Part shown: positions 6,746 through 30,917 of the stretch, in pieces | Position numbering within the stretch: the first letter of the stretch is position 1 | Layout: the number at the start of each line of letters is the position of its first letter | Assembly (NCBI GenBank): GCA_019359675.1 | Contig: JAHHGX010000022.1 | Location: 4,549 to 36,548, forward strand | Direction of reading: 5' to 3' | DNA length: 32,000 bases | Source of the DNA: Calothrix sp. FI2-JRJ7 | Lineage (GTDB): Bacteria > Cyanobacteriota > Cyanobacteriia > Cyanobacteriales > Nostocaceae | Position numbers and translations under genes: made by a program | The notes under the pieces: generated by a model | What the model saw: the letters and a program-made list of their open reading frames with translations, nothing else | What the model was told of the DNA's origin: nothing | Databases searched by the model: none

Positions 6746-6807
6746 GTAGGGTGCGTAACGCTATAACAATATTTCATCGAAGCGATAATCTTCTAGCGTT
6801 ACGCACC
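6746..6807 (+). repeat. GTAG-hairpin repeat (REP-like unit), copy A
   Basis: GTAG plus GGTGCGTAACGCTA (6750-6763), a 30-nt loop, then TAGCGTTACGCACC (6794-6807), giving a perfect 14-bp stem. It is flanked by a 23-bp direct repeat, ctttcgcaataaaat..acgaa, at 6722-6744 and 6815-6837. Confidence 0.8.
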
Positions 6808-6887
6808 ATAAATCCTTTCGCAATAAAATCAGACGAATTGGCAGTAAAGTTAGGATAGTAAGATTCGCAGAAAAAGATGAGCGTATT

Positions 6888-7628
6888 ATGGCAGTTGCTT
6901 ATTTCAGCTTTTATGCAGAGCTAAACGATTTTTTACCCCGACATAAAAGAGAGGTTCGCATCAGTCATAACTTTACTCTTCGGGCATCTGTCAAGGATGT
7001 GATAGAATCCTTTGGGGTACCGCATCCGGAAGTGCATAGTATAGAAGTGAACTCAAAATTTGTTGATTTTACTTATATAGTGCAGGATGAAGACAATATA
7101 AACGTCTATCCTATCTCACTTGGTGCAACAGTCAAGGCAAGTATATCAGTTCAACCGCAACCAGAGACTTATAACTTTGTCTTAGATATCCATTTAGGAA
7201 AACTTGCAAATTCTTTACGGTTGTTGGGGTTTGACACGTTATACCGTAATGACTACGAAGACAAGGAACTTGCACGAGTTTCCAGTAGTGAGAATCGAAT
7301 TTTGCTAACGCGCGACAAAGGATTGTTGATGCGGAGTATAGTAGTGTACGGTTACTACGTTCGACAAACTGACCCGAACAAGCAAATAGTCGAATTGATT
7401 CAAAGATTTAACTTATTAAAACACGTGGCGCCGTTTCGTCGATGCATTCGTTGTAACGGATTGTTAAGCCAAGTAAACAAAGAGTTGGTAATATCAGAGA
7501 TACCAGAAACCGTCAAAAAACTCAACGATGAATTCCACCGTTGTCAAAATTGCCATCAGGTTTACTGGAAAGGTTCGCACTACGACCAGTTACACTCATT
7601 TATCGATAGGATATTAAAAGACACGTAG
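6888..7628 (+). CDS. Mut7-C RNase (PIN-like) domain protein with N-terminal ubiquitin-like domain and C-terminal zinc ribbon
   Basis: 246-aa ORF. FVLDIHLGKLANSLRLLGFDT and LLTRDKGLL are typical of Mut7-C. The zinc ribbon is CIRCNG...CQNCHQVYWKGSHY. The TAG stop (7626-7628) lies inside the GTAGGG terminus of the adjacent repeat element. Confidence 0.8.
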   Translation: MAVAYFSFYAELNDFLPRHKREVRISHNFTLRASVKDVIESFGVPHPEVHSIEVNSKFVDFTYIVQDEDNINVYPISLGATVKASISVQPQPETYNFVLDIHLGKLANSLRLLGFDTLYRNDYEDKELARVSSSENRILLTRDKGLLMRSIVVYGYYVRQTDPNKQIVELIQRFNLLKHVAPFRRCIRCNGLLSQVNKELVISEIPETVKKLNDEFHRCQNCHQVYWKGSHYDQLHSFIDRILKDT

Positions 7629-8437
7629 GGTGCGTAACACTATAACAATATCTCAAAGAAGCGATAATTTCGTAGCGTTACGCACCATATATATTGGTTA
7701 CAATTATGGTTTGCGGTGCGTAACGCTATAAATCACACACCATATATATTGATTACAATTATGGTTTGCGGTGCGTAACGCTATAAGTCACACACCATAT
7801 ATATTGATTACAATTATGGTTTGCGGTGCGTAACGCTATAAATCACACACCATATATATTGATTACAATTATGGTTTGCGGTGCGTAACGCTATAAGTCA
7901 CACACCATATATATTGATTACAATTATGGTTTGCGGTGCGTAACGCTATAAGTCACACACCATATATATTGATTACAATTATGGTTTGCGGTGCGTGACG
8001 CTATAAGTCACACACCATATATATTGGTTACAATTATGGTTTGCGGTGCGTAACGCTATAAGTCACACACCATATATATTGATTACAATTATGGTTTGCG
8101 GTGCGTGACGCTATAAGTTACACAGTATATATATTGATTACAATTATGGTTTGCGGTGCGTGACGCTATAAGTCACACACCATATATATTGGTTACAATT
8201 ATGGTTTGCGGTGCATGACGCTATAAGTTACGCACTATATATATTGGTTACAATTATGGTTTGCGGTGCATGACGCTATAAGTTACGCACTATATATATT
8301 GGTTACAATTATGGTTTGCGGTGCGTGACGCTATAAGTTACACACTATATATATTGGTTACAATTATGGTTTGCGGTGCGTGACGCTATAAGTCTTATCG
8401 CTACGTTGAAGTTTTTTCGTAGCGTCACACACCCTAC
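7625..8437. mobile_element. REPIN-like composite: two inverted GTAG-hairpin units bracketing a 55-bp tandem array
   Basis: The left end is GTAGGGTGCGTAACACTA (7625-). The right end is TAGCGTCACACACCCTAC (8420-8437), its inverted complement. The flanks extend the symmetry (cac.../...gtg). There is no ORF inside. Confidence 0.7.
7687..8395 (+). repeat. Tandem array of 12 full units plus one partial unit, exact 55-bp period
   Basis: The unit is atatatattgRttacaattatggtttgcggtgcRtRacgctataaRtYaCRCaSY. Unit starts fall at 7687, 7742, 7797 ... 8347 with no indels. Variation is confined to about 6 positions, and neighbouring units share variants (units 10 and 11 are identical). Confidence 0.95.
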
Positions 8438-8559
8438 GTGCCTGATTGGGTTTGTTGGTTGTTTTGGGTGAGATGTGCGAGAATAAGAAACAAATAAACA
8501 GTCTTCGATACATTTGTTAACAAAGAGAATTTATAGAATGTTGAAATTAAGGCAGAATT

Positions 8560-10032
8560 ATGTATTCAGCAAAAGCAGCAGCACTTTTAATATTAGATGC
8601 TCAAAATAGAACGAAAGCTATACCAGAGAAGTTAGAAAGTGAATTAACCTATGTAGCAGGGTGGTGCTACTGGTATAAAGGAGCAAGTCTCGTCAAAGAG
8701 TTTGCTTACTCTTGTTTGGAGTTGTTAACGAAAGAGAAATTAAACTTGATATTGAAAGAATTAGGGTTAACGGTAGCGAAGTCATCGACAAAAGAAGATA
8801 TAGTAAAAGTATTAAAAGAAGTTAAGATTACAGAGTTACGTGCAATTTTAACGAAAAAAGTTATGCCAGACTTTGAATTGTCGGTAGTGACTTTTGAGAA
8901 ATTGTTCCGTATATCTACAGCAAACCGTCGCAGACTGCAAGAAATAAAAGATGCTCTACCCATTCTTTACTGGGGAGAATCAAAATATGGACAGTATCCA
9001 GTTTTCAGTTTATTGAAAGTATTAGAGATTTTACATGCAGATAAAACGTTATTAAAACAGTTTTATGATTATGTCGAAGAAAAGTTGACGGCAAAAGCAA
9101 AACAAATTGCACGAGAGAAAGAATTAGAGCTTTCGTTTAAAGAGAAGTTTTTGGGTAGAGTTGCACAATATCCAGAGATAGCGAAGAATGATAATATAAA
9201 ACAGTTAGTTAAACAAGAGAAATATCGAGCAGCACATAATTTTTTAAATAATTTAATTCAGCAGAAAGAAAGAATTGACCGTGAGAATGCAATTGAACTT
9301 TCGTTCAAATACGAGTTTACAGAAAAAGCGGCAATATATCCAGATTTGATTTATGATAATAATCTTCAACAGTTGATTAAAAAAGAATATTATAAAAGTG
9401 CGTGCAGATTATTGAATGAGTTAATTCAAAAACAAGATAAAATCAAGCGTCAAAGAGCATTAGAGCTTTCATTTCGAGACAAATTCGTCCAAAAATCGGT
9501 AGAATATCCAGATTTAGGACAAAGAAAAAATATTCAAAAGCTACTTATCGAAGAAAAATATCAAGCTGCATATAACGCATTATCTAATTTAATTCAAGAA
9601 CAAGAAAAATATGCACGACTTCAGCAGCAATATTTAGACTTGTGTGAGGAGTTGGGTACAGAAGCAGAACAACACAAAAATTTAAATGCGTTAACAAAAG
9701 CTATTCAAGAATTACAGGTCATTCATAAAGAATTAACGAACAGCAAGACAATGGGAGACTTAGCAAAATCGTTAGATAATTTGCTGCAACAAGGAATAGA
9801 AATTTTTAGCCAAACTGCTGACCGTCAATTTCAGTATTCCAATGAATTACAATCAGATAACAAAGCGTTAAAGTTTTGTCAGATGGTTTTATCAAGCAAA
9901 GGGAACTGTCCAGAAAATCAATTACGGTGGAAAAATATTCAAAACGTTCCAGAAGCTATTGCCAATTACGAAGACTTAATTTTTTCTCATCCGGTACTAC
10001 TGCAAATTCAGGGTGTCTCAGAACTTACGTAA
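8560..10032 (+). CDS. Hypothetical helical protein with three internal repeats of about 57 aa
   Basis: 490-aa ORF. The repeats are ELSFKEKF..YPEI..NIKQLVKQEKYRAAHNFLNNLIQQ, ELSFKYEF..YPDL..NLQQLIKKEYYKSACRLLNELIQK and ELSFRDKF..YPDL..NIQKLLIEEKYQAAYNALSNLIQE. No family recognised. The gene contains no GGCGCC. Confidence 0.65.
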   Translation: MYSAKAAALLILDAQNRTKAIPEKLESELTYVAGWCYWYKGASLVKEFAYSCLELLTKEKLNLILKELGLTVAKSSTKEDIVKVLKEVKITELRAILTKKVMPDFELSVVTFEKLFRISTANRRRLQEIKDALPILYWGESKYGQYPVFSLLKVLEILHADKTLLKQFYDYVEEKLTAKAKQIAREKELELSFKEKFLGRVAQYPEIAKNDNIKQLVKQEKYRAAHNFLNNLIQQKERIDRENAIELSFKYEFTEKAAIYPDLIYDNNLQQLIKKEYYKSACRLLNELIQKQDKIKRQRALELSFRDKFVQKSVEYPDLGQRKNIQKLLIEEKYQAAYNALSNLIQEQEKYARLQQQYLDLCEELGTEAEQHKNLNALTKAIQELQVIHKELTNSKTMGDLAKSLDNLLQQGIEIFSQTADRQFQYSNELQSDNKALKFCQMVLSSKGNCPENQLRWKNIQNVPEAIANYEDLIFSHPVLLQIQGVSELT

Positions 10033-10201
10033 AAACCACACGAAATATGTCCATTTGTTACATCTATTTGATGTATTATAACTGAATTATTAAAAAAATA
10101 TTAACAAGTTTCAACATAAGTAAAAAATTGTGTATTTTGATAACTCTACATGTCATGCTGAAATTTTGAGTTATAAACGAATTAATTTATAATCCAAAAG
10201 A

Positions 10202-10675
10202 ATGATAAGGCGCCGCTTCATCGTCCGTTTTGTAATTACACTACTGATACTTGGTATACTATCAGTAATATATATCATTTTAATGCCTTTGCATGACATA
10301 GATTGTAACGCAGAACCATTTATGTCATCCAAAGTCGAAAAATTCCAAGTAAGTGCAACAAAAGTAGTAGCTCAACCTTGGTTAGGGCAACACATGGTAT
10401 ACGGTATTTTTACAGTCCCCGACGAATATAAAGAAACCCAATTTTTTATATTAACAGTGAAAGGCGCCGGAAGTTTTTGCGAAAAACCATTTGGAAACAA
10501 ACTAAAAGTAGACGATATAATTGCTCAACCCGGTACACACTTAATAAAAGGCTATATCAGAACAAGATTAGCACTGAAATCAATTTTACAAGGTTTATAC
10601 AGTAGTATTAGTAGTAAAGATAACTGGACGTTAACATATCCTAGTAAAAAGGTTATAATTACAACAAGTACATAA
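10202..10675 (+). CDS. Hypothetical protein with N-terminal transmembrane anchor
   Basis: 157-aa ORF. It has an RRRF motif followed by a hydrophobic helix (VITLLILGILSVIYIILM). It contains 2 GGCGCC sites. No family recognised. Confidence 0.5.
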   Translation: MIRRRFIVRFVITLLILGILSVIYIILMPLHDIDCNAEPFMSSKVEKFQVSATKVVAQPWLGQHMVYGIFTVPDEYKETQFFILTVKGAGSFCEKPFGNKLKVDDIIAQPGTHLIKGYIRTRLALKSILQGLYSSISSKDNWTLTYPSKKVIITTST

Positions 10676-10797
10676 ACATATATTAATGCAAGTACCCGCA
10701 GTAAGATGGATACTAAATTTGTACGTTGTTCTTGGTTTGGCTGTAACATATTTATATTACGGGAAAGAGCGTAAGAAGCAATAATTAAGGAGTAACT

Positions 10798-12258
10798 GTG
10801 ACTACGTACAACAGTTTGCCAACTAACGAGCATGATGTCAACTTAGAACTGGCGCCACAAGAAACAGTATTTCAATGGACAAAACAATGGTATCCGGTTG
10901 CTGTTGTTGATTTTTTAGACTCATCTCGTCCTCATGCAATGCAATTATTTGGAAAAAATATCGTATTGTGGAAAGATGGCTCTGGAAAATGGCGATGTTT
11001 TGAAGATGCTTGTCCTCACCGATTGGCGCCTTTTTCAGAAGGACGAGTAGAAGCAGATGGTACATTAATGTGTGCTTACCATGCTTGGCGTTTTGATGGT
11101 GAAGGAAATTGTGTTAACATTCCCCAAGCTAAAGATGAACAAACGGAGTCGCGACATTGCTCAAATTCTAAATCTTGTGCAGTTTTTTATCCAACTCAAG
11201 AACAACAAGGATTATTGTGGGTATGGGCAGAGTCAGGAGTAGAAGCACAACTTGAAAGTCAGTCATTTCAACCGTTAATTACCCCAGAGTTGGAAAACAA
11301 GTCAGATAAAGTAGTAAAGTTATTTTGGAATTTTCGTGACCTGGCGTATGGATGGGACTTTTTCATGGAGAATGTTTCTGACCCAACACATGTTCCTGTC
11401 TCGCATCATGGAATTGTTGGCAACCGATACAAGGACGCTAAATATTACGACATGATTCGCTTGAGCGAGATATCAAGTCAATCCGCGTTTGCTTATGAAA
11501 TTACACCAACTGCCCCAAATATAAAGCAAGCTATTCATGATTTTCAACCACCTTGTTTAATGCGGATTGTTTCAACTTTATTTGATGGTGGTCAACTGAT
11601 TCTAATTTTATATGCTACTCCGACTCGTCCAGGATGGTGCCGTCATATTGGGTGCCAGATATTAGTCAAAAATGACCAAAACAAAACACCACCAGGTTTA
11701 GGATTTTTTGGATTACCGATGCCAACTTGGTTAGGTCATATTCTCGCTTCGTTATTTCTACACCAAGATATGGTTTTTCTTCATTATCAAGAAAAGATTA
11801 TAGCTCAAAAACAAGGTAGATGGTTGAACAAAGTTTTCACGCCTAACCCCCAAGATAAGATGATAATCGCGTTTCGCAATTGGTTAGAAAATAAAGCAGG
11901 TGGTGGCATTCCTTGGGCGCCAGAATGTAACTCACACCTTCCTACTCCGGAACTAGATAAACAAAAGCTATTTGATGTTTGGACAGCACACACCCAGCAT
12001 TGTAGCGTTTGTCAAAATGCTTTAAAAAATATAAATAGGTTGATTATCTCTGCTTTTGCAACATCTATAATAGTTACATTTTTGAGTGTAATTATTGATG
12101 CGCGCGCTGTTGCAGCAAAAACAGTTGCATCTTTTCCTCCTACTAGTTTTTGGTTAGCTCTTTTAGGCGCCATTGCCTCTGCTAGCATAGGTTATCTACT
12201 TCTAAAATTGCGTCGCTTGTTTTACGTATATGAGTTTGAACACGCACGTAATAACTAA
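10798..12258 (+). CDS. Rieske [2Fe-2S] oxygenase of the pheophorbide-a-oxygenase (PaO/Tic55-like) family
   Basis: 486-aa ORF. The GTG start is preceded by AAGGAG at good spacing. The Rieske motif is CPHRLAPFSEG...CAYHAWRF. The mononuclear-iron region is NVSDPTHVPVSHHG. A PaO-type C-terminal CSVC motif is followed by TM helices. Confidence 0.85.
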   Translation: MTTYNSLPTNEHDVNLELAPQETVFQWTKQWYPVAVVDFLDSSRPHAMQLFGKNIVLWKDGSGKWRCFEDACPHRLAPFSEGRVEADGTLMCAYHAWRFDGEGNCVNIPQAKDEQTESRHCSNSKSCAVFYPTQEQQGLLWVWAESGVEAQLESQSFQPLITPELENKSDKVVKLFWNFRDLAYGWDFFMENVSDPTHVPVSHHGIVGNRYKDAKYYDMIRLSEISSQSAFAYEITPTAPNIKQAIHDFQPPCLMRIVSTLFDGGQLILILYATPTRPGWCRHIGCQILVKNDQNKTPPGLGFFGLPMPTWLGHILASLFLHQDMVFLHYQEKIIAQKQGRWLNKVFTPNPQDKMIIAFRNWLENKAGGGIPWAPECNSHLPTPELDKQKLFDVWTAHTQHCSVCQNALKNINRLIISAFATSIIVTFLSVIIDARAVAAKTVASFPPTSFWLALLGAIASASIGYLLLKLRRLFYVYEFEHARNN

Positions 12259-12285
12259 ACAAGCTGGACATAATTACTATTCCAA

Positions 12286-12312
12286 AATTTGACAACCATT
12301 GGTTGTCAAATT
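12286..12312. promoter_or_regulatory. 27-bp near-perfect palindrome between the Rieske and padR genes (operator or bidirectional hairpin)
   Basis: AATTTGACAACCA t TGGTTGTCAAATT has 13-bp perfect arms. It lies 28 bp after the Rieske stop, and no T-run follows. Confidence 0.4.
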
Positions 12313-12345
12313 GCAATACCTAATTCTTTCCTAACTAGCAGCGAT

Positions 12346-12420
12346 ATACTCAAATCAACTATTACTCAACTAATTGAGCAAAATTCATGTTTTATACTGT
12401 ATACTCAACAAAGTGAGTAT
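12346..12420. promoter_or_regulatory. Cluster of TACTCAA motifs and inverted repeats upstream of the PadR gene (candidate autoregulatory operator)
   Basis: atactcaa at 12346. tactcaactaattgagca at 12362-12380 (CTCAA/TTGAG). atactcaacaaagtgagtat at 12401-12420 (ATACTCA/TGAGTAT), 46 bp before the ATG. Confidence 0.35.
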
Positions 12421-12465: not shown

Positions 12466-13011
12466 ATGGCAATATCTCATGCGATTTTGGCGGCATTATT
12501 AGATTCAGCGTGTAGTGGTTATGATTTGTCGAAGCAGTTTGCGGGGACTGTGGGTTTTTTTTGGCACGCAACACAGCAGCAGATTTACAGAGAGTTGAGT
12601 AAGTTAGAGGAAGAGGGACATATTGTTGCAGAAGTAATTAGGCAAGAAGGGCGCCCAGACAAGAAGGTATTTTCGGTTACAGAGGTAGGGAAAGAATATC
12701 TACGTAAATGGATATTAGAACCATCAGAAGTTAGTCCAATGAAAGATGAGTTGTTAGTAAAAATATTTGCAGGTGAAGTGGCACCGAAACAGAAAATTAT
12801 CAGAGAATTAGAAAATCACCGCCGACAGCACCAAGACAAGTTAAAAGCGCATCGAGCTATTGAGGAGAAGCATTTTGTAAGTCCGCAAACTTTACCTTTG
12901 GCAGAAAAGTACCGCTATTTAACGCTTCAGCAGGGAATACGCTACGAAATTGAATGGTTAAAGTGGTGTGAAGATACTATAAAGTTTTTACATGAAGATA
13001 ACTCTAATTGA
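12466..13011 (+). CDS. PadR-family transcriptional regulator
   Basis: 181-aa ORF. The N-terminal winged helix is ILAALLDSACSGYDLSKQF...QQQIYRELSKLEEEGHI...GRPDKKVFSVTEVG, with a C-terminal helical dimerisation region. Its stop overlaps the downstream ORF. Confidence 0.8.
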   Translation: MAISHAILAALLDSACSGYDLSKQFAGTVGFFWHATQQQIYRELSKLEEEGHIVAEVIRQEGRPDKKVFSVTEVGKEYLRKWILEPSEVSPMKDELLVKIFAGEVAPKQKIIRELENHRRQHQDKLKAHRAIEEKHFVSPQTLPLAEKYRYLTLQQGIRYEIEWLKWCEDTIKFLHEDNSN

Positions 13012-13019
13012 ATTGGGAT

Positions 13020-13895
13020 ATGAAAAAATTATTAATTACAGGCGCCAGTGGTTTTCTAGGGTGGCATATAATCGAGGTAGGACGCGAACACTACGAAGTT
13101 TACGGTACATATAACTCGCACACGTTAGAAGTAAATGGTGCCAGTTTATTCAAAGCTAACTTATCAGACTTTGAAGAACTGAAACAAATCTTTACAAATA
13201 TTAAACCAGATGCAGTAATTCATACAGCAGCAATTTCGCAACCAAACTATTGTCAAAACCATCCCGAAGAGTCTCACGCAATTAATGTCACAGCATCAGC
13301 AAACATAGCAGGATTGTGCGCTGAGTATTCTATACCATGTGCATTTACATCAACTGACCTGGTATTCGATGGTAAAAATGCACCATATAAAGAAACAGAT
13401 ACAGTCAACCCTGTAAATTTATACGGGGAACAAAAGGTCTTAGCAGAACAAGCGATGTTAAAAGAATATCCTAAAACAGCTATATGTAGAATGCCATTAA
13501 TGTTTGGCGCCGCAACACCCACAGCAAAAAGTTTCATGCAAGGGTTTATACAAACACTGCAATCTGGCAAAGAATTAAAATTATTTACCGATGAATTTAG
13601 AACACCAGCAAGTGGAATAACAGCCGCCAAGGGATTACTATTAATGATAGAAAAACAATATCACGGTATTATTCACCTAGGTGGGAGAGAAAGAATATCT
13701 CGCTACGACTTCGGAAAGTTAATGATTGAAGCATTTCATTTACCAGATACAAACCTAAAAGCATGTAAACAGCAAGACGTACAAATGTCGGCGCCACGTC
13801 CCGCAGATGTATCATTCGACAGTACAATAGCATTTACATTAGGATACAACCCATTATCAATAAAAGAAGAATTGGTAGGGTGCGTAACGCCATAA
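13020..13895 (+). CDS. NAD(P)-dependent SDR-family epimerase/reductase (RmlD-like substrate-binding fold)
   Basis: The ORF track starts at TTG 13008. ATG 13020 gives MKKLLITGASGFLG (Rossmann GxxGxxG) at the N-terminus. A YGEQK catalytic YxxxK motif is present. The last 7 codons (VGCVTP plus stop, 13875-13895) are supplied by a GTAG-hairpin repeat. Confidence 0.8.
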   Translation: MKKLLITGASGFLGWHIIEVGREHYEVYGTYNSHTLEVNGASLFKANLSDFEELKQIFTNIKPDAVIHTAAISQPNYCQNHPEESHAINVTASANIAGLCAEYSIPCAFTSTDLVFDGKNAPYKETDTVNPVNLYGEQKVLAEQAMLKEYPKTAICRMPLMFGAATPTAKSFMQGFIQTLQSGKELKLFTDEFRTPASGITAAKGLLLMIEKQYHGIIHLGGRERISRYDFGKLMIEAFHLPDTNLKACKQQDVQMSAPRPADVSFDSTIAFTLGYNPLSIKEELVGCVTP

Positions 13896-13937
13896 CAACA
13901 TTTCAACGAAGCAAATAATCTTGTAGCGTTACGCACC
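13875..13937 (+). repeat. GTAG-hairpin repeat (REP-like unit), copy D
   Basis: GTAGGGTGCGTAACGCCA ... TAGCGTTACGCACC. It is followed by a partial extra arm (aacacgcacca). It overlaps the 3' end of the SDR gene. Confidence 0.8.
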
Positions 13938-14007
13938 ATAAAAACACGCACCAAATAAATTTTGATGGGTTGTGCTATATTATATAGTGACAACGCAAAT
14001 AGAGAGT

Positions 14008-14274: not shown

Positions 14275-14300
14275 GGCGTTGCTGATTTTTGGGATGATTT

Positions 14301-14400
14301 GTCATTCTGAGCGGAACGTAGTGTAGCGAAGAATCCTTATAGATGCTACCCTTCGGGAAATCCTTCGGATTACGTTTCGCTTCGCTCCACTCAGCATGAC
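14301..14400. mobile_element. MITE-like element, GTCATKCTGAGC-terminus family (100 bp)
   Basis: GTCATTCTGAGCGGAACGTAGTGTAGCGAAGAATCC ... GGATTACGTTTCGCTTCGCTCCACTCAGCATGAC, a long imperfect inverted repeat around cttcgggaaatccttcgg. Confidence 0.6.
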
Positions 14401-14459
14401 ATATCTAAATTCATCCCGCATTTATGCAACGCCAAAAATAAGTTGTGGGTTAATTTACC

Positions 14460-15959
14460 CTACGCACGTATAATAACTACGTTACGTCCTTTTTTTGTTG
14501 TGCCATTTCTGGTGTTCAAACGGTCAATAAAAGCAGGCGCATCTTTGCGTCTATCAAAAATACACAACCATCCATAATCTGCTTTTATGCGTGCCAAATA
14601 AGCTTCTAATTGGTCTAACCCCTTTTCTTCTGGGTCTTTTATTTTATCTCGCCAAGTTTTTACTTCAATTCCCAATGTTACTTTTTTATATTTCAAGCAT
14701 AAATCCATACGACCATTTCCAATCGCGTATTCCCGCTCTAATGTTCCACCTCCATTTACAACACGATGTAAAAATGCCATTAATACTATATGGGGTGCTA
14801 TTTCTTGATATGATGTAGTACTAAGTAATGGTTCTCCATGCTGGCGCCAAAAATCGATAAAAGCTTCTTGTAAAGCATCAACGTCTAAATCGCCATCTTT
14901 ATGTAACCAGGTGGGAGTTATGCTAGGTAAGCTATCAGAGGCGCCTTGAGTCAAAACACGAGGAATAACTTCACGGTAAATAGGGTTAGCAATTACCAAT
15001 CCACCATTTGGTTCTCGACGTAATAACCCTAAATCAACTAAATATTGTCGGTCATCGTCTGGTGTATCACCTAATGTATCTCCGGCTAACATTGGTTCCA
15101 TTATTGCTTTGATTCTTGTTTCAGTAAGTCTATCTGCAAGAGAATCAAGGTGAGTGTCTTTACGGGCAATAAGTATTTCTTTAGCTTGATTTATATGTTC
15201 TACTGTAATAGTTACTTGTGTGTCAGTCACTAATTCTTCAACAATTTCTTTGGCTAAGGCATTGATTAACCAAGGTTGCCCTTGAGTTAAATCAAAAGCT
15301 ATTTGGGCAGCTTCATTCGTAAAAACTTGTCCCGTATCTTTTGTATGCTCCTGATATAATTCTACAACCTCTTTCTCATTAAAATATCTCATTGTTAACG
15401 AGCGGTCTTTAATGTTGAAGGGACTAGCTGTATTTAACCTCTCTTTACCACCAGAAGCTACTTTATAATCTCGGACATCACGCATACCAATCAATGCCAC
15501 AGATGAAGGAAAGTGTTTTGGACGATTAGGGTAACCGTCTCGTAGTTGTCGCAAAACAGAAATTAATACCTGGTTTTCTAAGGAATCTATTTCATCAATA
15601 AATAATACTATCGGTCGTGGACAATTTTGTGCCCACACCTGTAAGCTAGACCTAATTCTTTGTCCAGGCGCCCCATAACCCCAATTAGGTGGTTGTAAGT
15701 CAGCAGGTAAACGGAATGCAATTGTATCGCGCCATGTATCAAGAATTGCAGATTCGGCGCCTCCAATATCATCTTTAAAAGCATTTCCCACTTCTACCGA
15801 TAAAGTAACAGCACAGTACTCTCCCATGCTGGTTATTTGTTCAGCTAACGCTAGCATTGCTGTTGTTTTACCCGTTTGACGTGGTGCGTGGACAACAAAA
15901 TAACTACGTTGCCTAATCAACCGCTCAAGAGAAGGTAATCGAACGGTAGGTGACAACAT
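14460..15959 (-). CDS. AAA-type ATPase fused to a C-terminal PD-(D/E)XK nuclease domain
   Basis: Walker A is HAPRQTGKTTAM. Walker B is VLFIDEID. The C-terminal nuclease motif is GRMDLCL...LGIEVKTW. The longest ORF runs to 16097 but would overlap the upstream TPR gene. ATG 15959 (MLSPTVRLPSLERL) or 16010 is the more plausible start. Confidence 0.75.
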   Translation of the reverse strand: MLSPTVRLPSLERLIRQRSYFVVHAPRQTGKTTAMLALAEQITSMGEYCAVTLSVEVGNAFKDDIGGAESAILDTWRDTIAFRLPADLQPPNWGYGAPGQRIRSSLQVWAQNCPRPIVLFIDEIDSLENQVLISVLRQLRDGYPNRPKHFPSSVALIGMRDVRDYKVASGGKERLNTASPFNIKDRSLTMRYFNEKEVVELYQEHTKDTGQVFTNEAAQIAFDLTQGQPWLINALAKEIVEELVTDTQVTITVEHINQAKEILIARKDTHLDSLADRLTETRIKAIMEPMLAGDTLGDTPDDDRQYLVDLGLLRREPNGGLVIANPIYREVIPRVLTQGASDSLPSITPTWLHKDGDLDVDALQEAFIDFWRQHGEPLLSTTSYQEIAPHIVLMAFLHRVVNGGGTLEREYAIGNGRMDLCLKYKKVTLGIEVKTWRDKIKDPEEKGLDQLEAYLARIKADYGWLCIFDRRKDAPAFIDRLNTRNGTTKKGRNVVIIRA

Positions 15960-16077
15960 ATAGTGGTCGTCACTGTTACACGGACCTGAAATGTTGAACC
16001 AACGAGGCATAACAATGGAGCTAAGAGAAGCTGTGACAATGCCCAGTGTAGCGCATATTGTATAGTTGCTTGCACGC

Positions 16078-19204: not shown

Positions 19205-19347
19205 AATTTTCACTGCTAGAAAGCGCCATTTTTAATAAATTATGGGTAAATATTACAATAGCATAACTCGCGGTGCCTATTTAATAAAGTAGTATTAAAC
19301 TGTTATACTTATTGACAGTACTAATTAATTACTATAATATTCTGTAC

Positions 19348-20714: not shown

Positions 20715-20921
20715 TTAGACAGGGATTTGTATTATAAATTCGGCGCCTTTTCCAGGTGTAGAAATGCACTTCAAGCTACCATGATGTTTTTCTGTAATAA
20801 TTTGGTAGCTAATAGCTAAACCCATCCCGGTACCTTTACCTACAAGTTTAGTTGTAAAAAATGGGTCAAAAATAGATTGTTGTATGTCAATGATTAGTAT
20901 GTAATGGCGCCAATGCCACAA
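20715..20921 (-). pseudogene. Histidine-kinase C-terminal (HATPase_c) remnant
   Basis: Only the G1-G2 box tail survives: IFDPFFTTK...GTGMGLAISYQII..HHG...STPGKGAEFIIQIPV. There is no HisKA or sensor region. The lipase gene's stop lies 18 bp upstream. Confidence 0.7.
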
Positions 20922-20938
20922 GAGCGTGTGGGCAGATT

Positions 20939-21961
20939 TTACGGATTAGGTATAATATCTTTCAATATCCAAGAGCCATTACTTTCTTCTGGAATTAGCT
21001 TTGCTTCCCAATTGGTGCTATAATCGATATTCCAAGGTTTGGCGATTGAATTCATTCTGTCAAGACCAAAAATATCTGCATTGGAATAGTGTTGTTTATT
21101 GTTGGCTTGGTTGAGCATTGCTGTAAAAAATTGTTCAACGGCGCCATGTCCTCTATTTACTCCAGGAATATCAGGAAACTGTGTATAAAAGGGAAAGTCT
21201 ATTATAAAAGATTCGTCGGCAGTTCTAGCGCGGTCTTGGGCGCCAAACCCACTACCGTAAAAAGCCCAAGACCAGCGTGAATTATCACTAAAATTAGTTG
21301 TTTTATACTTATCGCCTCCTATTTCTAAATTACCTGGGTCTAAAGCAATAATTCGGTTAATACCTCCTGTAATATCAGCAGCTACAGATGATGCAACATA
21401 GCTACCAAAACTATGACCAATTAAATTAATATTTGGCGTAGTGATTCCAAATTGTTTTAGAATATTAGCAGTCCAAGTAGCAGCAGCGTCAATCCATGAA
21501 AGAGCAATTACAGGGTTTGGAATATTAAAATCTCCACGGTAATTTATTCCTGGAGAATAAGCTGCACTTCTCCAGTCCAAGACCAGTACTTGGTCATCAG
21601 GAGAAAAGCCATCAGCTGATGAAGCTAAATTTTTAATATCTGTTAGCTGGTCGAGAATATCTCCTTTGGGTAAATTCATTTGTAAACCATGAATAACTAT
21701 CCACGTACTTTTGTTTGGGTCAAAAGTCTTGGAAATACCATCAGCCCACTGAATGCTAATATCATGTGATTCTATACCCAGTAAAGTGTTACCAGTGATA
21801 GTCCCTTGTAACTTTAGCCAAGGATTAAGGCTTTGGAATTCATCGTTTTTATCAAAACTAGCACCATTAAGCCGTAATGGATAATTTGTTATATTTAGGC
21901 TAGATTCGATATTAAGTGAGCTTGTACAATTCGTGAAATGATTATTGTGGTTGCTTAACAT
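20939..21961 (-). CDS. Alpha/beta-hydrolase lipase (pancreatic-lipase-like family features)
   Basis: 340-aa ORF. WIVIHGL, VLVLDW, the nucleophile elbow GHSFGS and IALDPG follow the order seen in triacylglycerol-lipase-family enzymes. No obvious signal peptide. Confidence 0.65.
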   Translation of the reverse strand: MLSNHNNHFTNCTSSLNIESSLNITNYPLRLNGASFDKNDEFQSLNPWLKLQGTITGNTLLGIESHDISIQWADGISKTFDPNKSTWIVIHGLQMNLPKGDILDQLTDIKNLASSADGFSPDDQVLVLDWRSAAYSPGINYRGDFNIPNPVIALSWIDAAATWTANILKQFGITTPNINLIGHSFGSYVASSVAADITGGINRIIALDPGNLEIGGDKYKTTNFSDNSRWSWAFYGSGFGAQDRARTADESFIIDFPFYTQFPDIPGVNRGHGAVEQFFTAMLNQANNKQHYSNADIFGLDRMNSIAKPWNIDYSTNWEAKLIPEESNGSWILKDIIPNP

Positions 21962-22012
21962 AGCTGCACCTTGTCTATATTATGATAATTACGCAACCGG
22001 GACATAAAAACT

Positions 22013-22281
22013 GTAGGGTGCGTGACGCTACGAAAAAAATTCAACGTAGTAATAAGACTTGTAGCAGTCACGCACCTATGTTATAAACGTCACGCACCTA
22101 TTTATAATTGTCACGCGCTTTGACGATTAATATATTATTTGGTGCGTAACGCCTGATGATTATTCGTTTGCTCTCGGTGTTATTATAATCACGCGCTTTG
22201 ACGATTAATATATTATTTGGTGCGTAACGCCTGATGATTATTCGTTTGCTCTCGGTGTTATTATAGCGTCACGCACCCTAC
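22013..22281. repeat. REPIN-like composite of the GTAG-hairpin family with an internal 2 x 78-bp tandem duplication
   Basis: Perfect 18-bp inverted termini, GTAGGGTGCGTGACGCTA (22013-) and TAGCGTCACGCACCCTAC (22264-22281). The interior unit tcacgcgctttgacgattaatatattatttggtgcgtaacgcctgatgattattcgtttgctctcggtgttattata is repeated at 22111 and 22189. Confidence 0.85.
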
Positions 22282-22390
22282 ATCTTTTGCGATTATCATC
22301 AGAAGTAAGTCGCTAGTATGAATCTCAAAAGCTTAGGGCAGTGATATACTTATCCTGTATGGCAGTTCCGTATCTTAATATCCCATCACT

Positions 22391-25300
22391 ATGACCCTGG
22401 AGCAACGATTTTTTAGTCTCTCTCCGGATATATACTGTATTGTAGGTATGGAGGGTTTAATTATTCAGGTAAATCCGGCTTTCGAGAAAATATTAGGGTT
22501 TACTAAAGAAGAAGTGTTGGGACAATCGTATATTGGGTTTGTACATGAAGATTCGGCGCCTGCAACGGTTGAAGCACTTTTAACACTCGAACTTGGCTTT
22601 GCTGCTCGTTATCATAATCGTTACAAATGTAAAGATGGTTCCTACAAGTGGGTTGAATGGATTGTAGAGCCAGTTTTAGAAGAAGGGTTAATGTATGCAG
22701 TAGGGCGGGATTTTACAAACATTTATCAAGTGCTTGAAGAACGAGAGCGCTTTTTTTCCGTAGGCGCCGACCTTCTTTCTATTGGAACTTTTGACGGTTC
22801 CCTTACTTGGGTAAGTCCATCATGGGAGAAAACACTCGGTTGGACAACTGAGGAGTTGACGAGCCATCCCTGGGTTTATTTTGTCCACCCTGATGACCAT
22901 GAAAAAACATTAAGTGCAGGTCAAGAACTTATTGCGGGAGTCGAGTTAGTATCGTTTGAAAACCGTTATCGTTGTAAAGACGGCAGTTATCGCTGGATAA
23001 GTTGGAGATCTCACCCATTTGTCTCGGAAGGATTAATTTACGGCGCCGGAATAGATGTTACCGAGCGTAAACTAGCTCAAAATGCAGCTGAAGAGCAGGG
23101 TCTTCTTTTTAAAGCTATTACCGATAACGCTTTTGTTGCTTTATTTATTATGGACGAACACCAGCACTGTGTGTTTATGAACCCTGCTGCTGAGGAACTT
23201 ACTGGGTTTTCGTTGGATGAAGTACGAGGTCGGGCACTACACGATATTATTCATCATACTCGCCCTGATGTTAGCCATTACCCTCTCGAAGAATGTCCTA
23301 TTGACCGCGCATTTCCAGAAAATAATCAGGAGCAAGGTGAGGAGGTGTTTATTCACAAGGATGGCCACTTCTACACTGTCGCTTACACTGCCAGCCCAAT
23401 CCGTTCAGCGGATAAAATTCGTGGGACGGTCATGGAAGTTCAAGATATAAGTGTTCGTAAACGCGCCCTTGAAGAGTTAAAAGAAAGTGAAGAACGCTTC
23501 CGTACACTCGTGGAGCAAGTGCGCGACCACGCAATTTTCCGTACCGATATTGAAGGGCGCCCGACAACTTGGAACGAGGGTGTACGGCAAGTACTAGGCT
23601 TTGAGGAACACGAATTTATCAACCAAGAAATAACACCAATAATTTTTACCCCAGAAGACTTAGAGAAAAATGTCCCAAGCCTTGAATTGAAAGAAGCTAA
23701 GACAACAGGAAGTGCAAGCGATGACCGTTGGATGCGACACAAAGACGGCACGCGGATTTGGATTTCGGGTATGACTTATGGGGTTTATAATGAGAAGGGA
23801 GAAATTAGCAGCTATGGTAAGGTTATGCGAGATATGACCAATGCCAAGCGGGCTGAGGAAGCACTAGAAAAAGAACAGGCACGCTTACGTGCTGTACTCG
23901 ATAATATACCTGTCGCCGTTGTACTTGCTGAGGCGCCGTCCGGAAAAATTGTAATGGCGAACAAGCGTACAGAAGAAATTTTTCGCCATCCAGTATTTTA
24001 TTCCAATGATTATAACTCCTACCATGAATGGGAAAGCTACCATGCGGACGGGCGAAGAACAGAAAGCCACGAGTATGCCCTTGCCAAAGTGTTTGCTACT
24101 GGTGAATCATACGAAAATGAGTATCATTATCAACGTGGCGACGGTACAAGAACATGGGTTCGCGTAATGGGGGCGCCTATAAAAGACCGCGACGGCAACG
24201 TGATAGCAGGAGTAGTTGCGATTACAGATATAGATGCAGAAAAGCAAGAGCAGGAGCGACGAGAGCAGCTTCTTGAAACTGAGCAGTCAGCTCGTGCTGA
24301 GGCAGAGAGGGTTGGAAGGATGAAAGACGAATTTTTGGCGACACTTTCGCACGAACTTCGCACACCGCTAAATGCCATACTTGGTTGGTCGCAAATCATC
24401 CGTAAAGGTAACATAGACGCAGCGAGAATGCAGCAAGGATTAGACACTATACAGCGTAATGTCCGCGCGCAGTCACAGCTTATCGAAGACCTTCTTGATA
24501 TGAGCCGCATTACTTCCGGTAAAATACGGTTAAACGTGCAGCAAGTCGATATAAAAAGTGTTATCGAAGCAGCACTTGAGACAGTACGCTTGTCAGCAGA
24601 AGCCAAGGGAGTTCAACTACAAACAGTTTTTGATCAATTTATTGGTGTAATATCAGGAGACCCAGCGCGTTTACAGCAAATTATTTGGAATCTCCTTGCC
24701 AACGCGATTAAATTTACTCCTAGAAACGGGAAAGTGCAAATTGTTTTAGAGCGTGTAGACTCTCGTATGGAAATAAGCGTTATTGACACAGGGTTAGGTA
24801 TAAAGCCTGAATTTTTACCGCACGTGTTCGAGCGATTTAGCCAAGCTGATGGGTCAATTACGCGAAAACATGGGGGGTTAGGACTTGGGTTATCTATTGT
24901 TCGAGGACTTACCGAACTGCACGGTGGTACAGTACGAGTAAAAAGTGATGGCGAAGGAATGGGTGCCACGTTTACAGTATCATTACCAGTTGCCGCAGTA
25001 ATACCTAACGTAACAGAACAAAAGAAAGCGCATCGTGATATAGCTAATAGTAGCGAAGAGTTTGATGACTTCGAGCAATTAACACTTACTGGAATAAAAA
25101 TTCTCGTAGTCGATGACGAACCCGATGCTCGCGAACTGATACGATATGTACTTGAAGATGCTCTAGCTAATGTTATTACCGCAGGTTCTGCACACGATGC
25201 ACTTGAGTTAATGATGCAAGAGGCGCCGGATATACTTATTAGTGACATCGGTATGCCAGATGAAGACGGGTATGAATTTATCCGCAAAATACGCTCTCTA

Positions 25301-26133: not shown

Positions 26134-26279
26134 AAGTACTGGAAGTACGGTAAACCGAACTAACCGAACATATTTTTAGATTGGCGCCAATGAAAATTGT
26201 TCCTTCATATACAGAACAAAATCAACCGATAGCTCGTCAAGGAATAAAACATTAGTATTTTAATTAACGTAGAATCTTT

Positions 26280-27419: not shown

Positions 27420-27662
27420 ATGAGTAACGAAATTAATGCAGTTGAATTATCTAATGATGAGCTTGATACTGTAGCTGGTGGTTTAGCGATTAGCTTAGGT
27501 GATATCGGTGGGTTTACGTCGGATGCATCTAACACCTTTTCACAAAAAAATTTAACTGTAGGACAACAAACCTTTGCTGGCCCCGGTGGTAGCTTCACAG
27601 GTTCTGTAACTAACCTACAAGAAATTATCAGTACTGCTGGTCAAGCAATTGCTGCCAAGTAA
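27420..27662 (+). CDS. Double-glycine-leader bacteriocin-like precursor peptide (resembles cyanobacterial CTB-type bacteriocins)
   Basis: 80-aa ORF with a GGAG RBS 8 nt upstream. The leader MSNEINAVELSNDELDTVAGG fits the LSxxELxxVxGG double-glycine consensus. The core is Gly/Ser/Thr-rich (FAGPGGSFTGSVTNLQEI). A strong terminator follows. Confidence 0.75.
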   Translation: MSNEINAVELSNDELDTVAGGLAISLGDIGGFTSDASNTFSQKNLTVGQQTFAGPGGSFTGSVTNLQEIISTAGQAIAAK

Positions 27663-27702
27663 TTAAAGTCTTCAACCCCCAATCATTTCGGTATAATTTT
27701 GC

Positions 27703-27741
27703 ACGGCGCCTATCTTAATGTAGATATCGGCGCCGTTTTTT
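27703..27741 (+). terminator. Rho-independent terminator whose stem is built from two GGCGCC sites
   Basis: ACGGCGCCTATC (27703-) pairs with GATA-tc-GGCGCCGT (-27736), then a run of six T. It lies between the convergent peptide gene and the M50-TPR gene (stop at 27749). Confidence 0.85.
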
Positions 27742-27748
27742 ACTAGCT

Positions 27749-30052: not shown

Positions 30053-30184
30053 AGCAATGTTATAGAGCAAACTATGCTTAGTATTCCCAGTTTTTCATGT
30101 TGGAGTTAGATTGAAATGTGCTTTTTAAGTTCTTCAGCAAATACACGTACTTTGAGAGGAATATAAGCACGGTTCGTTAGTTGG

Positions 30185-30520
30185 GTGAAAGAATTGGCGC
30201 CGTTATTATCGAGTCGTGGCGTAGCATTTCTTAATGCTCCAGTTATGAGTTTAGCAGCAAAGAACGCGGCGAATTTAATGTTGGCAAAAAGTCATGCACC
30301 GATGTTTCCTATTGATTTAGTTAAGAAAGATTTTCGCTATGTTATGCAAAGCGCGCGGGAAGTAGATGCTGTAATCCCTGTATCTACGGCTATTCACAAT
30401 ATTTATTTGGATGCAGCTGCGCTTGGGTATGGGGGTAATAATATTACAGGTGTTGCTCGGCTTTTATTTGATATTCTAGAGACCGAATATACCCAAATAT
30501 ATAGCTTTGTAATACATTAG
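30185..30520 (+). pseudogene. Remnant of a 3-hydroxyisobutyrate/6-phosphogluconate-dehydrogenase-family (NAD_binding_11) gene
   Basis: Only the C-terminal helical part is present: FPIDLVKKDFRYVMQSAREVDAVIPVSTAIHNIYLDAAALGYG. The Rossmann N-domain is absent and there is no ATG start. An internal segment between ...FLNAPV and the C-domain appears to be missing. Confidence 0.6.
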
Positions 30521-30522
30521 CT

Positions 30523-30585
30523 GGTGCGTGGCGCTACGAGTCTTATAATTACATTGAAGTTTATTCATGGCGCCACACACCCTAC
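30523..30585 (-). repeat. GTAG-hairpin repeat, copy G (reverse orientation), carrying a GGCGCC site in one arm
   Basis: GGTGCGTGGCGCTA ... TGGCGCCACACACCCTAC. Relative to copy C (8374-8437), an arm change A>G is matched by T>C on the other arm. Confidence 0.75.
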
Positions 30586-30632
30586 TTGGGAATGTCGCTA
30601 TTTTACGCATTTGGAGGCGCCAATAAAATCGG

Positions 30633-30696
30633 GTAGGGTGCGTGAAAGCTATTACTATCAATCAATGTAACGCAAAATACAGTGCTTTTACGCACC
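30633..30696 (+). repeat. GTAG-hairpin repeat, copy H (divergent arms), plus a partial terminus at 30712-30735
   Basis: GTAGGGTGCGTGAAAGCTA ... GTGCTTTTACGCACC. The arms differ from the consensus but still pair. ccaccctacttgg recurs at 30578-30590 and 30723-30735. Confidence 0.65.
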
Positions 30697-30917
30697 ATTA
30701 ATTACGTTAAGTAAGCGCCATTCCACCCTACTTGGTATTAAAACTTAATAATTTTAAATTTTTTTACATATTACCTACAAACTTTATATAGTCTTTACCA
30801 AAATATTATTGTTTGTACTGAGATAATTTAAACTGCGAAAAGTGCCGCCGGCAACAACCAAAAGAAATGGAAGAATGGCTTTTGCAGTTTGTTTAATAAA
30901 TTAAAATTTATATAAAT

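Follow-up and report, generated by a model that had tools for sequence, protein, structure and literature searches.

The hairpins dispersed over the stretch of 32,000 nucleotides analysed here (the window) are very probably REP elements, non-coding and with an unpaired 5' GTAG tag, belonging to a family that flanks the genes of RAYT (REP-associated tyrosine transposase, a domesticated HUH/Y1 enzyme) in cyanobacteria. They are a long-looped version of the REP, unusual for their large loops and for a 13-copy tandem array; GTAG REPs in cyanobacteria have already been published, and the kind of element is known.

Anatomy and covariation of the units

Eight units of 62-64 nt were found in the window (Table 1), all of them at the positions given in an earlier note on this DNA. 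In each unit, GTAG is followed by a 12-14 bp stem (GGTGCGTRACGC.. / ..GCGTYACGCACC) that encloses a loop of about 30-35 nt, inside which the proximal right arm recurs in degenerate form. The 18-mer GTAGGGTGCGTRACGCTA, with up to three mismatches allowed, matched the window 21 times versus 0.03 expected. For the 12-mer arm, 29 matches were obtained versus 1.9 expected. All units fold as single-stranded DNA hairpins with stems of 12-14 bp (dG -11 to -16.5 kcal/mol, z -3.3 to -5.7). The constant module consists of GTAG and the basal 7 bp of the stem, where GGTG(C/T)GT is paired with ACGCACC. Each 62-nt unit corresponds to one REP with an expanded loop and not to a REP doublet. The earlier note had also described REPIN-like inverted doublets; while the REP identity stood, this part did not, since the arms of the inverted pairs lie 205-750 bp apart with tandem repeats filling the gap, and they are not classical REPINs. 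Unit 8375-8437 is 91% complementary to unit 22013, and units 30585 and 30633 point their GTAG ends at each other across 47 bp. Near unit 30633, a partial copy (CCATTCCACCCTAC) occupies 30720-30733, and a stray right-arm fragment is located at 13946-13952, beyond unit 13875.

Table 1. Positions of the hairpin units and associated repeats in the window
Feature	Position	Strand	Remarks
28-nt direct repeats, 86% identical	6717-6744 + 6810-6837	.	bracket unit 6746
Long-loop REP unit, subfamily A (GTAG + GGTGCGTAACGCTA ... TAGCGTTACGCACC)	6746..6807	+	dG -16.5, z -5.4
Long-loop REP unit, subfamily A	7625..7686	+	TAG of tag is the Mut7-C stop
Tandem array, 55 bp x 12.9 (TRF)	7683-8394 (listed as 7687..8374)	-	between units 7625(+) and 8437(-)
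Long-loop REP unit, subfamily B	8375..8437	-	GTAG at 8437, outward; T.G wobble at stem position 5
Long-loop REP unit, subfamily A	13875..13937	+	first 21 nt are the SDR gene end
Long-loop REP unit, subfamily B	22013..22076	+	between divergent genes
Tandem repeat, 78 bp x 2.0	22111..22265	-	bracketed by units 22013(+) and 22281(-)
Long-loop REP unit, different loop	22219..22281	-	GTAG at 22281, outward; inverted partner of 22013
Long-loop REP unit, subfamily B, GGCGCC in both arms	30523..30585	-	3 bp past the stop of ORF 30185-30520
Long-loop REP unit, subfamily C (GTGAAAGC / GCTTTTAC)	30633..30696	+	subfamily also in L033, L049

The arm variants listed in the earlier note were correct and are compensated in both arms, namely TAACGC/GCGTTA, TGACGC/GCGTCA, TGGCGC/GCGCCA and, with one G.T pair, TGAAAGC/GCTTTTAC; the GAAAGC form also occurs in other Calothrix genomes (L033, L049). 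In the covariation analysis, 92.8% of the cells pair. As had been claimed, the arms covary: in a sample partly chosen by its left arm and made up of sequences related to each other, the distal-stem covariation score was 0.299 compared to 0.112 after shuffling, a value reached by none of 500 shuffles, and slid partners gave only 0.05-0.08. At stem position 8, the pairs were GC (47), UA (20), AU (6) and CG (3). T·G was seen in 19 cases versus C·A in one, which identifies the GTAG strand as the folding one.

RAYT genes, tandem arrays and related genomes

The window contains no RAYT gene, as the earlier note had stated, nor was any found in the 94 non-RAYT loci sampled or on Calothrix plasmids. 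A RAYT gene flanked by the repeat, for which that note had proposed to search, does exist elsewhere. A search with E. coli RayT yielded homologues on Gloeocapsa and Kovacikia plasmids with inverted GTAGGATGCGTTA.. hairpins as flanks. These enzymes belong to a widespread cyanobacterial clade of 183-186 aa that keeps the HUH and Tyr motifs, reaches 185-189 bits on NCBIfam NF047646 (cut-off 80), aligns with E. coli TnpA-REP (PDB 4ER8) at E=3e-38 and about 42% identity, and scores 22.9 bits on the IS200 model, below its cut-off of 55. A GTAGG(G/A)TG(C/T)GT hairpin was present within 300 bp of the RAYT in 75 of 90 loci, with GTAGGGTG(C/T)GT (GGTG type) hairpins in 59 and GTAGGATG.. hairpins in 16; any GTAG hairpin was present within this distance in 78/90, and hairpins lay on both sides in 50/90. 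The GTAGGGTG(C/T)GT hairpins flank the RAYTs of Nostoc sp. MS1, a 7.8-Mb JGI contig and a Rivularia MAG; part of them are arranged there in 47-bp arrays. Three long-loop units, with loops homologous to those of window subfamily A, flank the RAYT of Calothrix sp. FI2-JRJ7 (L138, L184), and a REP supplies the TAG that stops this gene. We infer that the window copies serve as single-stranded DNA substrates for a RAYT, which binds, cuts and moves them, and that the window genome probably still encodes such an enzyme.

Several features had been overlooked in the earlier note, namely the 55-bp array, the 78-bp repeat, the 21-bp fragments, the 28-nt direct repeats and the arm fragments. The unit of the 55-bp array consists of a 28-nt spacer and a 27-nt mini-hairpin without GTAG, which reads GGTGTGTGAC TTATAGC GTYACGCACC on the minus strand and equals unit 8437 minus its tag and minus 32 nt deleted between GTC repeats. 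This array is not CRISPR-like, because its spacers are identical. Both 78-bp copies contain a degenerate minus-strand unit (GGTGCGTAACGCC ... TAATCACGCGC), and the right-arm end of unit 22013 is repeated as 21-bp fragments at 22067-22116. The left flank of hairpin 6746 is duplicated on its right side, forming the 28-nt repeat, which is single-copy in Calothrix sp. PCC 7716 and in the relatives with an empty site. REP-containing tandem arrays were found in 19 sources, and tandem reiteration is a trait of the REP family.

The host of the window is a cyanobacterium, not a proteobacterium, and the window is about 95% identical to PCC 7716. Site 6746 is filled in these two and empty in L092, L093 and L094, the PCC 7716 unit being collapsed to GTAGAGTGCGTTACGCACC. 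Unit 7625 is missing in PCC 7716, L093 and L094, and the 7625-8437 composite was seen in the window only, among the relatives compared. At the SDR site, PCC 7716 retains the left arm only, with a 46-bp deletion between CCATAA repeats, and Dulcicalothrix PCC 7102 has unit 22013 and a CCACTAC remnant without 22086-22278. Between the two closest genomes, no clean pair of empty and filled sites was found; their differences are deletions, collapses or the replacement of about 190 bp. Many cyanobacteria host the family (Calothrix, Dulcicalothrix, Nostoc, Richelia, Microseira, Oscillatoria and Phormidium), and the non-cyanobacterial matches had no partner arm.

All differences at REP sites between the window and PCC 7716 are deletions, collapses, flank duplications or arrays, and this would suit a family that spread ancestrally as REPs and is now immobile here, with its RAYT lost or inactive and with change arising by slippage, deletion and tandem amplification. 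We regard such a relic state as possible, though doubtful. The RAYT in L138 lacks ATG, the canonical start codon, although its relative in L184 has one, and no RAYT was found in about 60 kb of the window/PCC 7716 clade. However, intact Calothrix-cluster RAYTs are present in at least three other samples; the absence from 60 kb carries little weight because RAYTs are single-copy. Moreover, only the window lineage has the 7625-8437 composite, which is recent since its array copies are 96% alike.

Placement relative to genes

The units are strongly extragenic: only 7 of 71 fell within long open frames, versus 53 expected. The claim of the earlier note that the elements sit at gene 3' ends holds for three of the five loci, while divergent genes flank the other two, unit 6746 being 77 bp upstream of the Mut7-C gene and unit 22013 between lipase-like and histidine-kinase genes. 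Two genes were said to be terminated by the repeat, and both cases were borne out. The TAG at 7626-7628, from the GTAG of unit 7625, closes the Mut7-C ORF 6888-7628, and the Mut7-C tails differ in PCC 7716, L093 and L094. Similarly, GTA GGG TGC GTA ACG CCA TAA (13875-13895) encodes VGCVTP and the stop of ORF 13008-13895, an RmlD-like SDR gene; this C-terminus was found in 0 of 150 diverse SDR representatives, in which homology ends at residue 289-290 and native tails go 8-15 residues beyond. Unit 30523-30585 begins 3 bp past the stop of ORF 30185-30520.

The three loci at gene 3' ends, the G.T wobble on one strand only, as RNA would show, and the argument that many REPs act as RNA (PMC3733652) could also mean that the hairpins are mainly RNA elements with a host function (3' mRNA stabilisers, terminators or small RNAs), with the stem kept by selection on the transcript and the RAYT association incidental. 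This is improbable, given that two of the five loci lie between divergent genes, that both orientations occur with respect to the upstream gene (30523-30585 is antisense to its ORF), that the stems are followed by ATAAAT, ATATAT or TATGTT instead of a T-run, that no Rfam match was obtained, and that tag and basal stem are shared with the RAYT flanks in 75/90 loci. The single-strand asymmetry is equally compatible with recognition of single-stranded DNA. Both readings are compatible, as REPs can be co-opted.

Known systems and proposed mechanism

IS200/IS605 elements and their hairpin MITEs share with the window units a Y1 HUH enzyme recognising subterminal single-stranded DNA hairpins, the absence of target duplications and tolerated G.T pairs in the stem, but here the enzyme is of RAYT type, its gene is not multicopy in the sample, and the same hairpin stands on both sides instead of distinct left and right ends. 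That the hairpins are MITEs of an ordinary IS (IS200/IS605 TnpA ends or TIR-type) and not RAYT-associated REPs is highly improbable: although RAYTs are distantly related to IS200 TnpA and the subfamily-B hairpin lies within an outer inverted repeat (AGGACTTACGCAACTGGCATA / TGACAGTTGCGTAAGTCCT) in several other cyanobacteria, the window lacks this repeat, target-site duplications are absent except for one 28-nt flank repeat, the bit score of the flanking enzyme is 185-189 on the RAYT equivalog versus 22.9 on IS200 (cut-off 55), and no IS200-type gene adjoins any sampled copy.

As REP elements, the units would be read by RAYT through the constant GTAG and basal-stem module on single-stranded DNA, by analogy with the E. 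coli TnpA-REP/REP complex. In the distal stem, pairing would be the sole requirement; because only pairing is needed, it would drift by compensated changes and split into subfamilies. The loop has expanded to about 30 nt in this lineage. Insertion would take place between genes or at extreme gene 3' ends, where GTAG is able to provide the stop, and copies would later decay by deletions between short repeats within the hairpin or, alternatively, give rise to tandem arrays when amplified along with part of the flank. To our knowledge, direct RAYT-mediated REP transposition has been demonstrated in no organism, what is established being in vitro binding and cleavage only.

E. coli REPs likewise consist of an unpaired 5' GTAG ahead of an imperfect palindrome and are found outside genes, either singly, in inverted pairs or in clusters, and E. 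coli RayT (TnpA-REP, YafM; PDB 4ER8) is a homologous enzyme of the same NCBIfam equivalog. In contrast, their stem sequence is unrelated and they are about 35 nt long with a short or bulged loop, versus 62-64 nt and about 30-35 nt of loop in the window. REPs usually measure 20-40 bp, and the larger dimensions of the window units count against a REP. E. coli BIMEs are made of alternating Y/Z REPs with IHF or gyrase motifs, unlike the window arrays, which are direct repeats of hairpin and spacer.

In cyanobacteria, GTAG-12, -15 and -16 palindromes have been described in Anabaena, Nostoc and Cyanothece by Di Nocera et al. 2013 (PMC3733652), with clusters of GTAG REPs reiterated in tandem together with flank DNA. 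Stems of 6-13 bp and loops of mostly 2-3 nt, up to 27, were given there, and the stems of 12-14 bp and loops of 30-45 nt observed here exceed these ranges. GTAG-15, with large loops of 9-15 nt and GC termini, resembles the short-loop GTAGGGTGCGTTA GCGACAGCG TAACGCACC copies beside RAYTs when compared by description and not by consensus. The REP of Nostoc punctiforme, GTTGGGTTTCGTTCCTCAACCCAAC (PMC3116915), differs in sequence from the window units. Pseudomonas REPINs (Bertels and Rainey 2011, PMC3116915) follow the same logic, a single-copy RAYT being flanked by the repeat that it presumably disseminates, whereas each window unit is a lone REP carrying one GTAG, and the inverted pairs are either separated by 205-750 bp or have the GTAG ends inward. 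True REPIN doublets of this cyanobacterial family adjoin the RAYT of Nostoc sp. MS1.

Anatomy and conservation of the hairpin units

The earlier note had described a dispersed family of hairpins with a 5' GTAG, and all eight complete units were recovered where it had placed them, each composed of GTAG, a stem of 12-14 bp and a loop of about 30-35 nt. In the window, stems open with GGTG(C/T)GT and close with ACGCACC, and single-stranded DNA folding gave the predicted hairpin for every unit. One 18-mer occurs 21 times in the window (0.03 expected) and a 12-mer arm 29 times (1.9 expected). The GTAG is unpaired and lies immediately 5' of the stem in all eight window units, which came independently from the repeat search, and in 83 of 83 units of alignment A5, whose search pattern demanded it.

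Hairpin units, associated repeats and the state of each site in relatives; units are named by their start (+) or GTAG-end (-) coordinate
Feature	Window position	Structure	State in relatives
Subfamily A	6746(+), 7625(+), 13875(+)	arms AACGCTA/TAGCGTT; loop ..TATAACAA..TTCA.CGAAGC.A..	
Subfamily B	8437(-), 22013(+), 30585(-)	arms GACGCTA/TAGCGTC; loop ..CGAAAAAA.TTCAACGTAG.AATAAGACTT..	
Subfamily C	30633(+)	arms GAAAGC/GCTTT(T/C)	
Unit 22281	22281(-)	B-type arms, loop of another kind	
Flank repeat	6717-6744 / 6810-6837	28-nt direct repeats either side of unit 6746	
Site 6746	6746	full unit with the 28-nt flank repeats	empty in three relatives (L092-L094; Mut7-C 83-92% identical); in PCC 7716 collapsed to GTAGAGTGCGT/TACGCACC, a deletion between the GCGT repeats of both arms
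Composite block	7625-8437	813 bp; outer ends are units 7625(+) and 8437(-)	absent from PCC 7716, L093 and L094
Tandem array	7683-8394, inside the composite block	55 bp x 12.9, 96% matches	
Site 13875	13875	full unit	PCC 7716: left arm only, 46-bp deletion between CCATAA repeats
Inverted pair	22013-22281	units 22013(+) and 22281(-) enclosing 21-bp right-arm fragments and a 78-bp x 2 repeat	PCC 7102: one unit and a CCACTAC remnant

That pairing in the palindrome is kept by compensated changes, as the earlier note had proposed, was borne out against both shuffled and slid controls. Alignment of 83 distinct units by their ends (GTAG plus 16 nt on the left, 16 nt on the right) gave 92.8% paired cells over the 14-bp stem, compared to 81.9% in shuffled alignments and 22-50% with slid partners, and a covariation score of 0.299 versus 0.112 and 0.05-0.08, respectively. 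None of 500 shuffles attained the observed score, a count that is not a probability, since the sequences are related and the left arm of loci from the cyanobacterial pattern scan was set by the search pattern. Seven stem pairs show changes on both sides, and positions 8-12 hold as many as four Watson-Crick pair types (at position 8, GC 47, UA 20, AU 6 and CG 3). The basal 7 bp are invariant save for C to T at position 5, which is partly an effect of unit selection. At this position T.G was found 19 times and C.A once, an asymmetry that is real because the regular expressions admitted both; it indicates that folding, whether as ssDNA or as RNA, is required of the GTAG strand. GTAG and a 7-bp basal stem that is constant across orders, with a distal stem free to covary, form a very clear recognition module, and the constant and covarying positions amount to a natural mutational map of what the REP-associated tyrosine transposase (RAYT) would read.

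At 62-64 nt, the units exceed the 20-40 bp with a short loop of a typical REP, and short-loop relatives of 28-31 nt adjoin RAYTs in other cyanobacteria. The loop of about 30 nt shares approximately 75% identity between Calothrix and Microseira copies, it contains an alternative inner hairpin (GCTRCG-N12-CGTAGY) retained through a G.T change, and it is also present in RAYT-flanking Calothrix copies. We nevertheless consider it improbable that the loop is a second conserved module rather than filler, offering a second contact to a protein such as the RAYT or acting as RNA. Were this true, long-loop REPs would form a functional subclass of their own and the hairpin-plus-flank arrays would stem from strand transfer by the RAYT and not from replication slippage.

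RAYT genes and the identity of the units

The absence of a RAYT gene from the window, already noticed from the sequence, was confirmed with two sets of queries: proteobacterial RAYTs gave no tblastn match in the window or the first 84 loci sampled for comparison, and cyanobacterial RAYTs likewise gave none in the window or among REP-sampled loci L001-L094. None was found on Calothrix plasmids either. Two weak tblastn matches to the C-terminus of an Opitutus RAYT (L048, L014) do not touch the catalytic domain and were put down to chance.

When E. coli RayT was compared with plasmids by tblastn, cyanobacterial homologues were obtained in Gloeocapsa PCC 7428 and Kovacikia minuta, and both have inverted GTAGGATGCGTTA..TAACGCATCC hairpins on their flanks that are one compensated position apart from the tag and basal stem of the window units. 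With the Kovacikia protein as query, a large cyanobacterial clade of 183-aa proteins was retrieved, named REP-associated tyrosine transposase by NCBI, in which the HUH and Tyr motifs are kept and HFH and YIHYNPV are conserved. These proteins score 185-189 bits against the NF047646 equivalog (cut-off 80) and match the TnpA-REP structure PDB 4ER8 with E=3e-38. Their flanks carry GTAGGATG.. in Calothrix PCC 7507 and Tolypothrix PCC 7101, and GTAGGGTG(C/T)GT.. in Nostoc sp. MS1, a 7.8-Mb JGI contig and a Rivularia MAG. Scanning metagenomes with the RAYT alignment contributed 80 further loci, giving 90 RAYT loci in all. A GTAG hairpin was present within 300 bp in 78 of the 90, of the GGTG type in 59 and of the GATG type in 16; hairpins stand on both sides in 50, and 25 have a long-loop copy.

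RAYT genes flanked by the GTAG repeat were found in several related genomes, Nostoc sp. MS1 and Calothrix sp. FI2-JRJ7 (L138, L184) among them. The FI2-JRJ7 gene in L138 has three flanking long-loop units whose loops (..CTATAACAAC..CAACGAAGC.AAAAT..) are homologous to subfamily A, and an intact relative of it is in L184. The Calothrix RAYT reading frame terminates in the TAG contained within the GTAG of the REP downstream of it (L184 1680-1682; L138 3056-3058). The L138 copy has AAG where the ATG start is expected, and in the NCBI annotation its product begins at a non-canonical codon further upstream and is 193 aa long.

The family noticed in the window is real, and its reading as GTAG-REP/RAYT-type elements is correct: the units are long-loop REPs specific to this lineage, within the GTAG-REP/RAYT system of cyanobacteria. 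GTAG-tagged REP families of Anabaena, Nostoc and Cyanothece (GTAG-12, -15 and -16), as well as REPtrons and tandem clusters with flank, have already been described (PMC3733652), so that the kind of element is known; as a guess, the window units are GTAG-15. Nostoc punctiforme has REPINs and a RAYT with a different REP sequence (PMC3116915), and RAYT group 4 is reported to be common in cyanobacteria (PMC5581495). Particular to the window are the long conserved loop, the array size and the clean set of site comparisons. The REP/RAYT system, studied mostly in Gammaproteobacteria, is hereby extended to a well-sampled cyanobacterial clade.

The likeness to REPINs, i.e., close inverted REPs with GTAG at both outer ends, did not hold for the window pairs. 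The inner edges are 688 bp (7625/8437) and 142 bp (22013/22281) apart, with both gaps occupied by tandem repeats, and the GTAG ends of 30585/30633 point inward; symmetric REPIN-like forms occur elsewhere (L055, L077, L103). A MITE with terminal inverted repeats (TIR) was rejected, as seven of eight units show no target site duplication and the outer TIR of other genomes is missing from the window; the 28-nt flank repeat of unit 6746 is absent from PCC 7716. A MITE derived from IS200/IS605 was likewise discarded (the RAYT enzyme scores 22.9 bits on the IS200 model, cut-off 55; no such gene near any sampled copy). An intrinsic terminator does not fit a loop of about 30 nt and a stem followed by ATAAAT, ATATAT or TATGTT with no T-run, an attC-like element was ruled out on anatomy, and a CRISPR array at 7683-8394 by the 96% identity of whole 55-bp units, spacers included. 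Rfam at gathering threshold returned no family in the window, and a full-text literature search for the arm sequences returned unrelated primers only.

Site histories, arrays and gene tails

At site 7625-8437, PCC 7716, L093 and L094 have different sequence, some 190 bp or more in length. Taken together, the site comparisons (see table) reveal two or more insertions that differ in age, after which deletions and amplifications centred on the hairpins took place. The array at 7683-8394, the repeats enclosed by the 22013/22281 pair and the direct repeats around unit 6746 are additions to what the earlier note had described. The 55-bp period of the array is made of a 28-nt spacer and a 27-nt mini-hairpin which, on the minus strand, is unit 8437 minus GTAG and minus the 32 nt between two GTC repeats. 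Arrays containing REP were present in 19 of the 185 sequences examined, some of them 47-bp arrays adjoining RAYT genes; periods elsewhere range from 43 to 184 bp and contents vary, e.g. loop and right arm (L058) or left arm and loop (L003). At unit 6746 the left flank has been copied to the right side of the hairpin, and this duplicated flank and the spacer of the 7687-8374 array both measure 28 nt. A fixed 28-nt distance as a general rule was ruled out by the periods in other genomes, and because of these differences the shared length is probably a coincidence.

The units avoid coding sequence, with 7 of 71 midpoints lying in stop-to-stop frames of at least 150 codons versus 53 expected; they are dispersed, multicopy and extragenic, with five loci in the 32 kb of the window. 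Their placement at gene 3' ends, claimed for the family as a whole, applies to three loci (Mut7-C, SDR and ORF 30185-30520), while the other two lie between divergent genes. The Mut7-C protein ends in ..LKDT* in the window and in ..LNQSSSFIN*, ..LSKVS* and similar tails in relatives. For the SDR protein, the proposed origin of the tail from the repeat was upheld: none of 150 representatives of 50%-identity clusters ends in VGCVTP, and past residue 289-290 of the 295 in the window protein they are no longer homologous to it and run on for 8-15 unrelated residues, so that the last six codons and the stop are repeat-derived. PCC 7716 SDR still ends in VGCVTP despite its half-deleted unit. These sites are concrete cases in which a REP has taken over the C-terminus or stop codon of a gene, the RAYT's own stop codon included, and such units can be mis-annotated as coding tails.

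Judged from their translations, two ORFs resemble no more than the C-terminal portions of larger proteins: ORF 30185-30520 that of a dehydrogenase-type protein, and ORF 30987-31928(-) about one third of a glycine-dehydrogenase-type (GcvP-like) protein. Both genes may be truncated or frame-shifted close to the REP cluster 30523-30733.

Distribution and genomic surroundings

In a scan with GTAGGGTGCGTRACGC of one genome per species (596 Gb), the matches listed included many cyanobacterial loci, in Calothrix NIES-4105, HK-06, PCC 7103 and PCC 7716, Dulcicalothrix, Nostoc, Richelia, Microseira, Oscillatoria princeps, Phormidium and several MAGs, with the partner arm 25-50 nt downstream. The non-cyanobacterial matches listed were scattered and without a partner arm, which is chance level for a 16-mer in 596 Gb. 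In plasmid DNA, only two matches to the unit were obtained. In a MAG, Nostoc FACHB-280 and Microseira (L006, L012, L013, L027, L037, L040, L065, L071, L080), outer inverted repeats (AGGACTTACGCAACTGGCATA and TGACAGTTGCGTAAGTCCT) surround a B-type hairpin in a nested composite of about 125 bp. The arrangement may reflect a REP that landed within a palindromic element of another kind, as has been reported for the GTAG-15 dimers of Anabaena variabilis (Di Nocera et al., PMC3733652); the outer inverted repeat of these composites was not found in the window.

The window derives from a cyanobacterium of the heterocyst clade and encodes, among others, Mut7-C, PaO/Rieske, Uma2, PsbP-like and TPR proteins, at a G+C content of 34-46%. 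Blocks of 92-96% identity are shared with Calothrix sp. PCC 7716 / Rivularia sp. IAM M-261, and Dulcicalothrix desertica PCC 7102 is 93-94% identical to window 20890-23036. A 966-bp Logan contig (SRR12347730) is identical to window 6747-7712 and breaks within repeats, and the Logan contig L085 ends inside the tandem array; units and arrays break short-read assemblies. Compared with PCC 7716, a Rieske/PaO oxygenase gene with a 157-aa ORF and an AAA-ATPase gene are present in the window only (10094-12383, 14277-16091), and an AraC/SnoaL/NmrA/SDR cluster in PCC 7716 only (L089 4755-8380).

GGCGCC occurs 75 times in the window versus 3.0 expected (e.g. 43-48, 6626-6631, 30569-30574), being a highly iterated palindrome of this genome, in the role that GCGATCGC has in other cyanobacteria. 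Both arms of the REP unit 30523-30585 have gained GGCGCC, and a C-5 cytosine DNA methylase gene is located at 19312-20472. A MITE distinct from the hairpin units, about 107 bp long and with terminal inverted repeats TGTCATTCTGAGCG ... CTCAGCATGACA, lies at 14296-14402, and a 116-bp relative of it (L087 13664-13779 versus L089) is an insertion polymorphism between two PCC 7716-lineage assemblies that are 99% identical.
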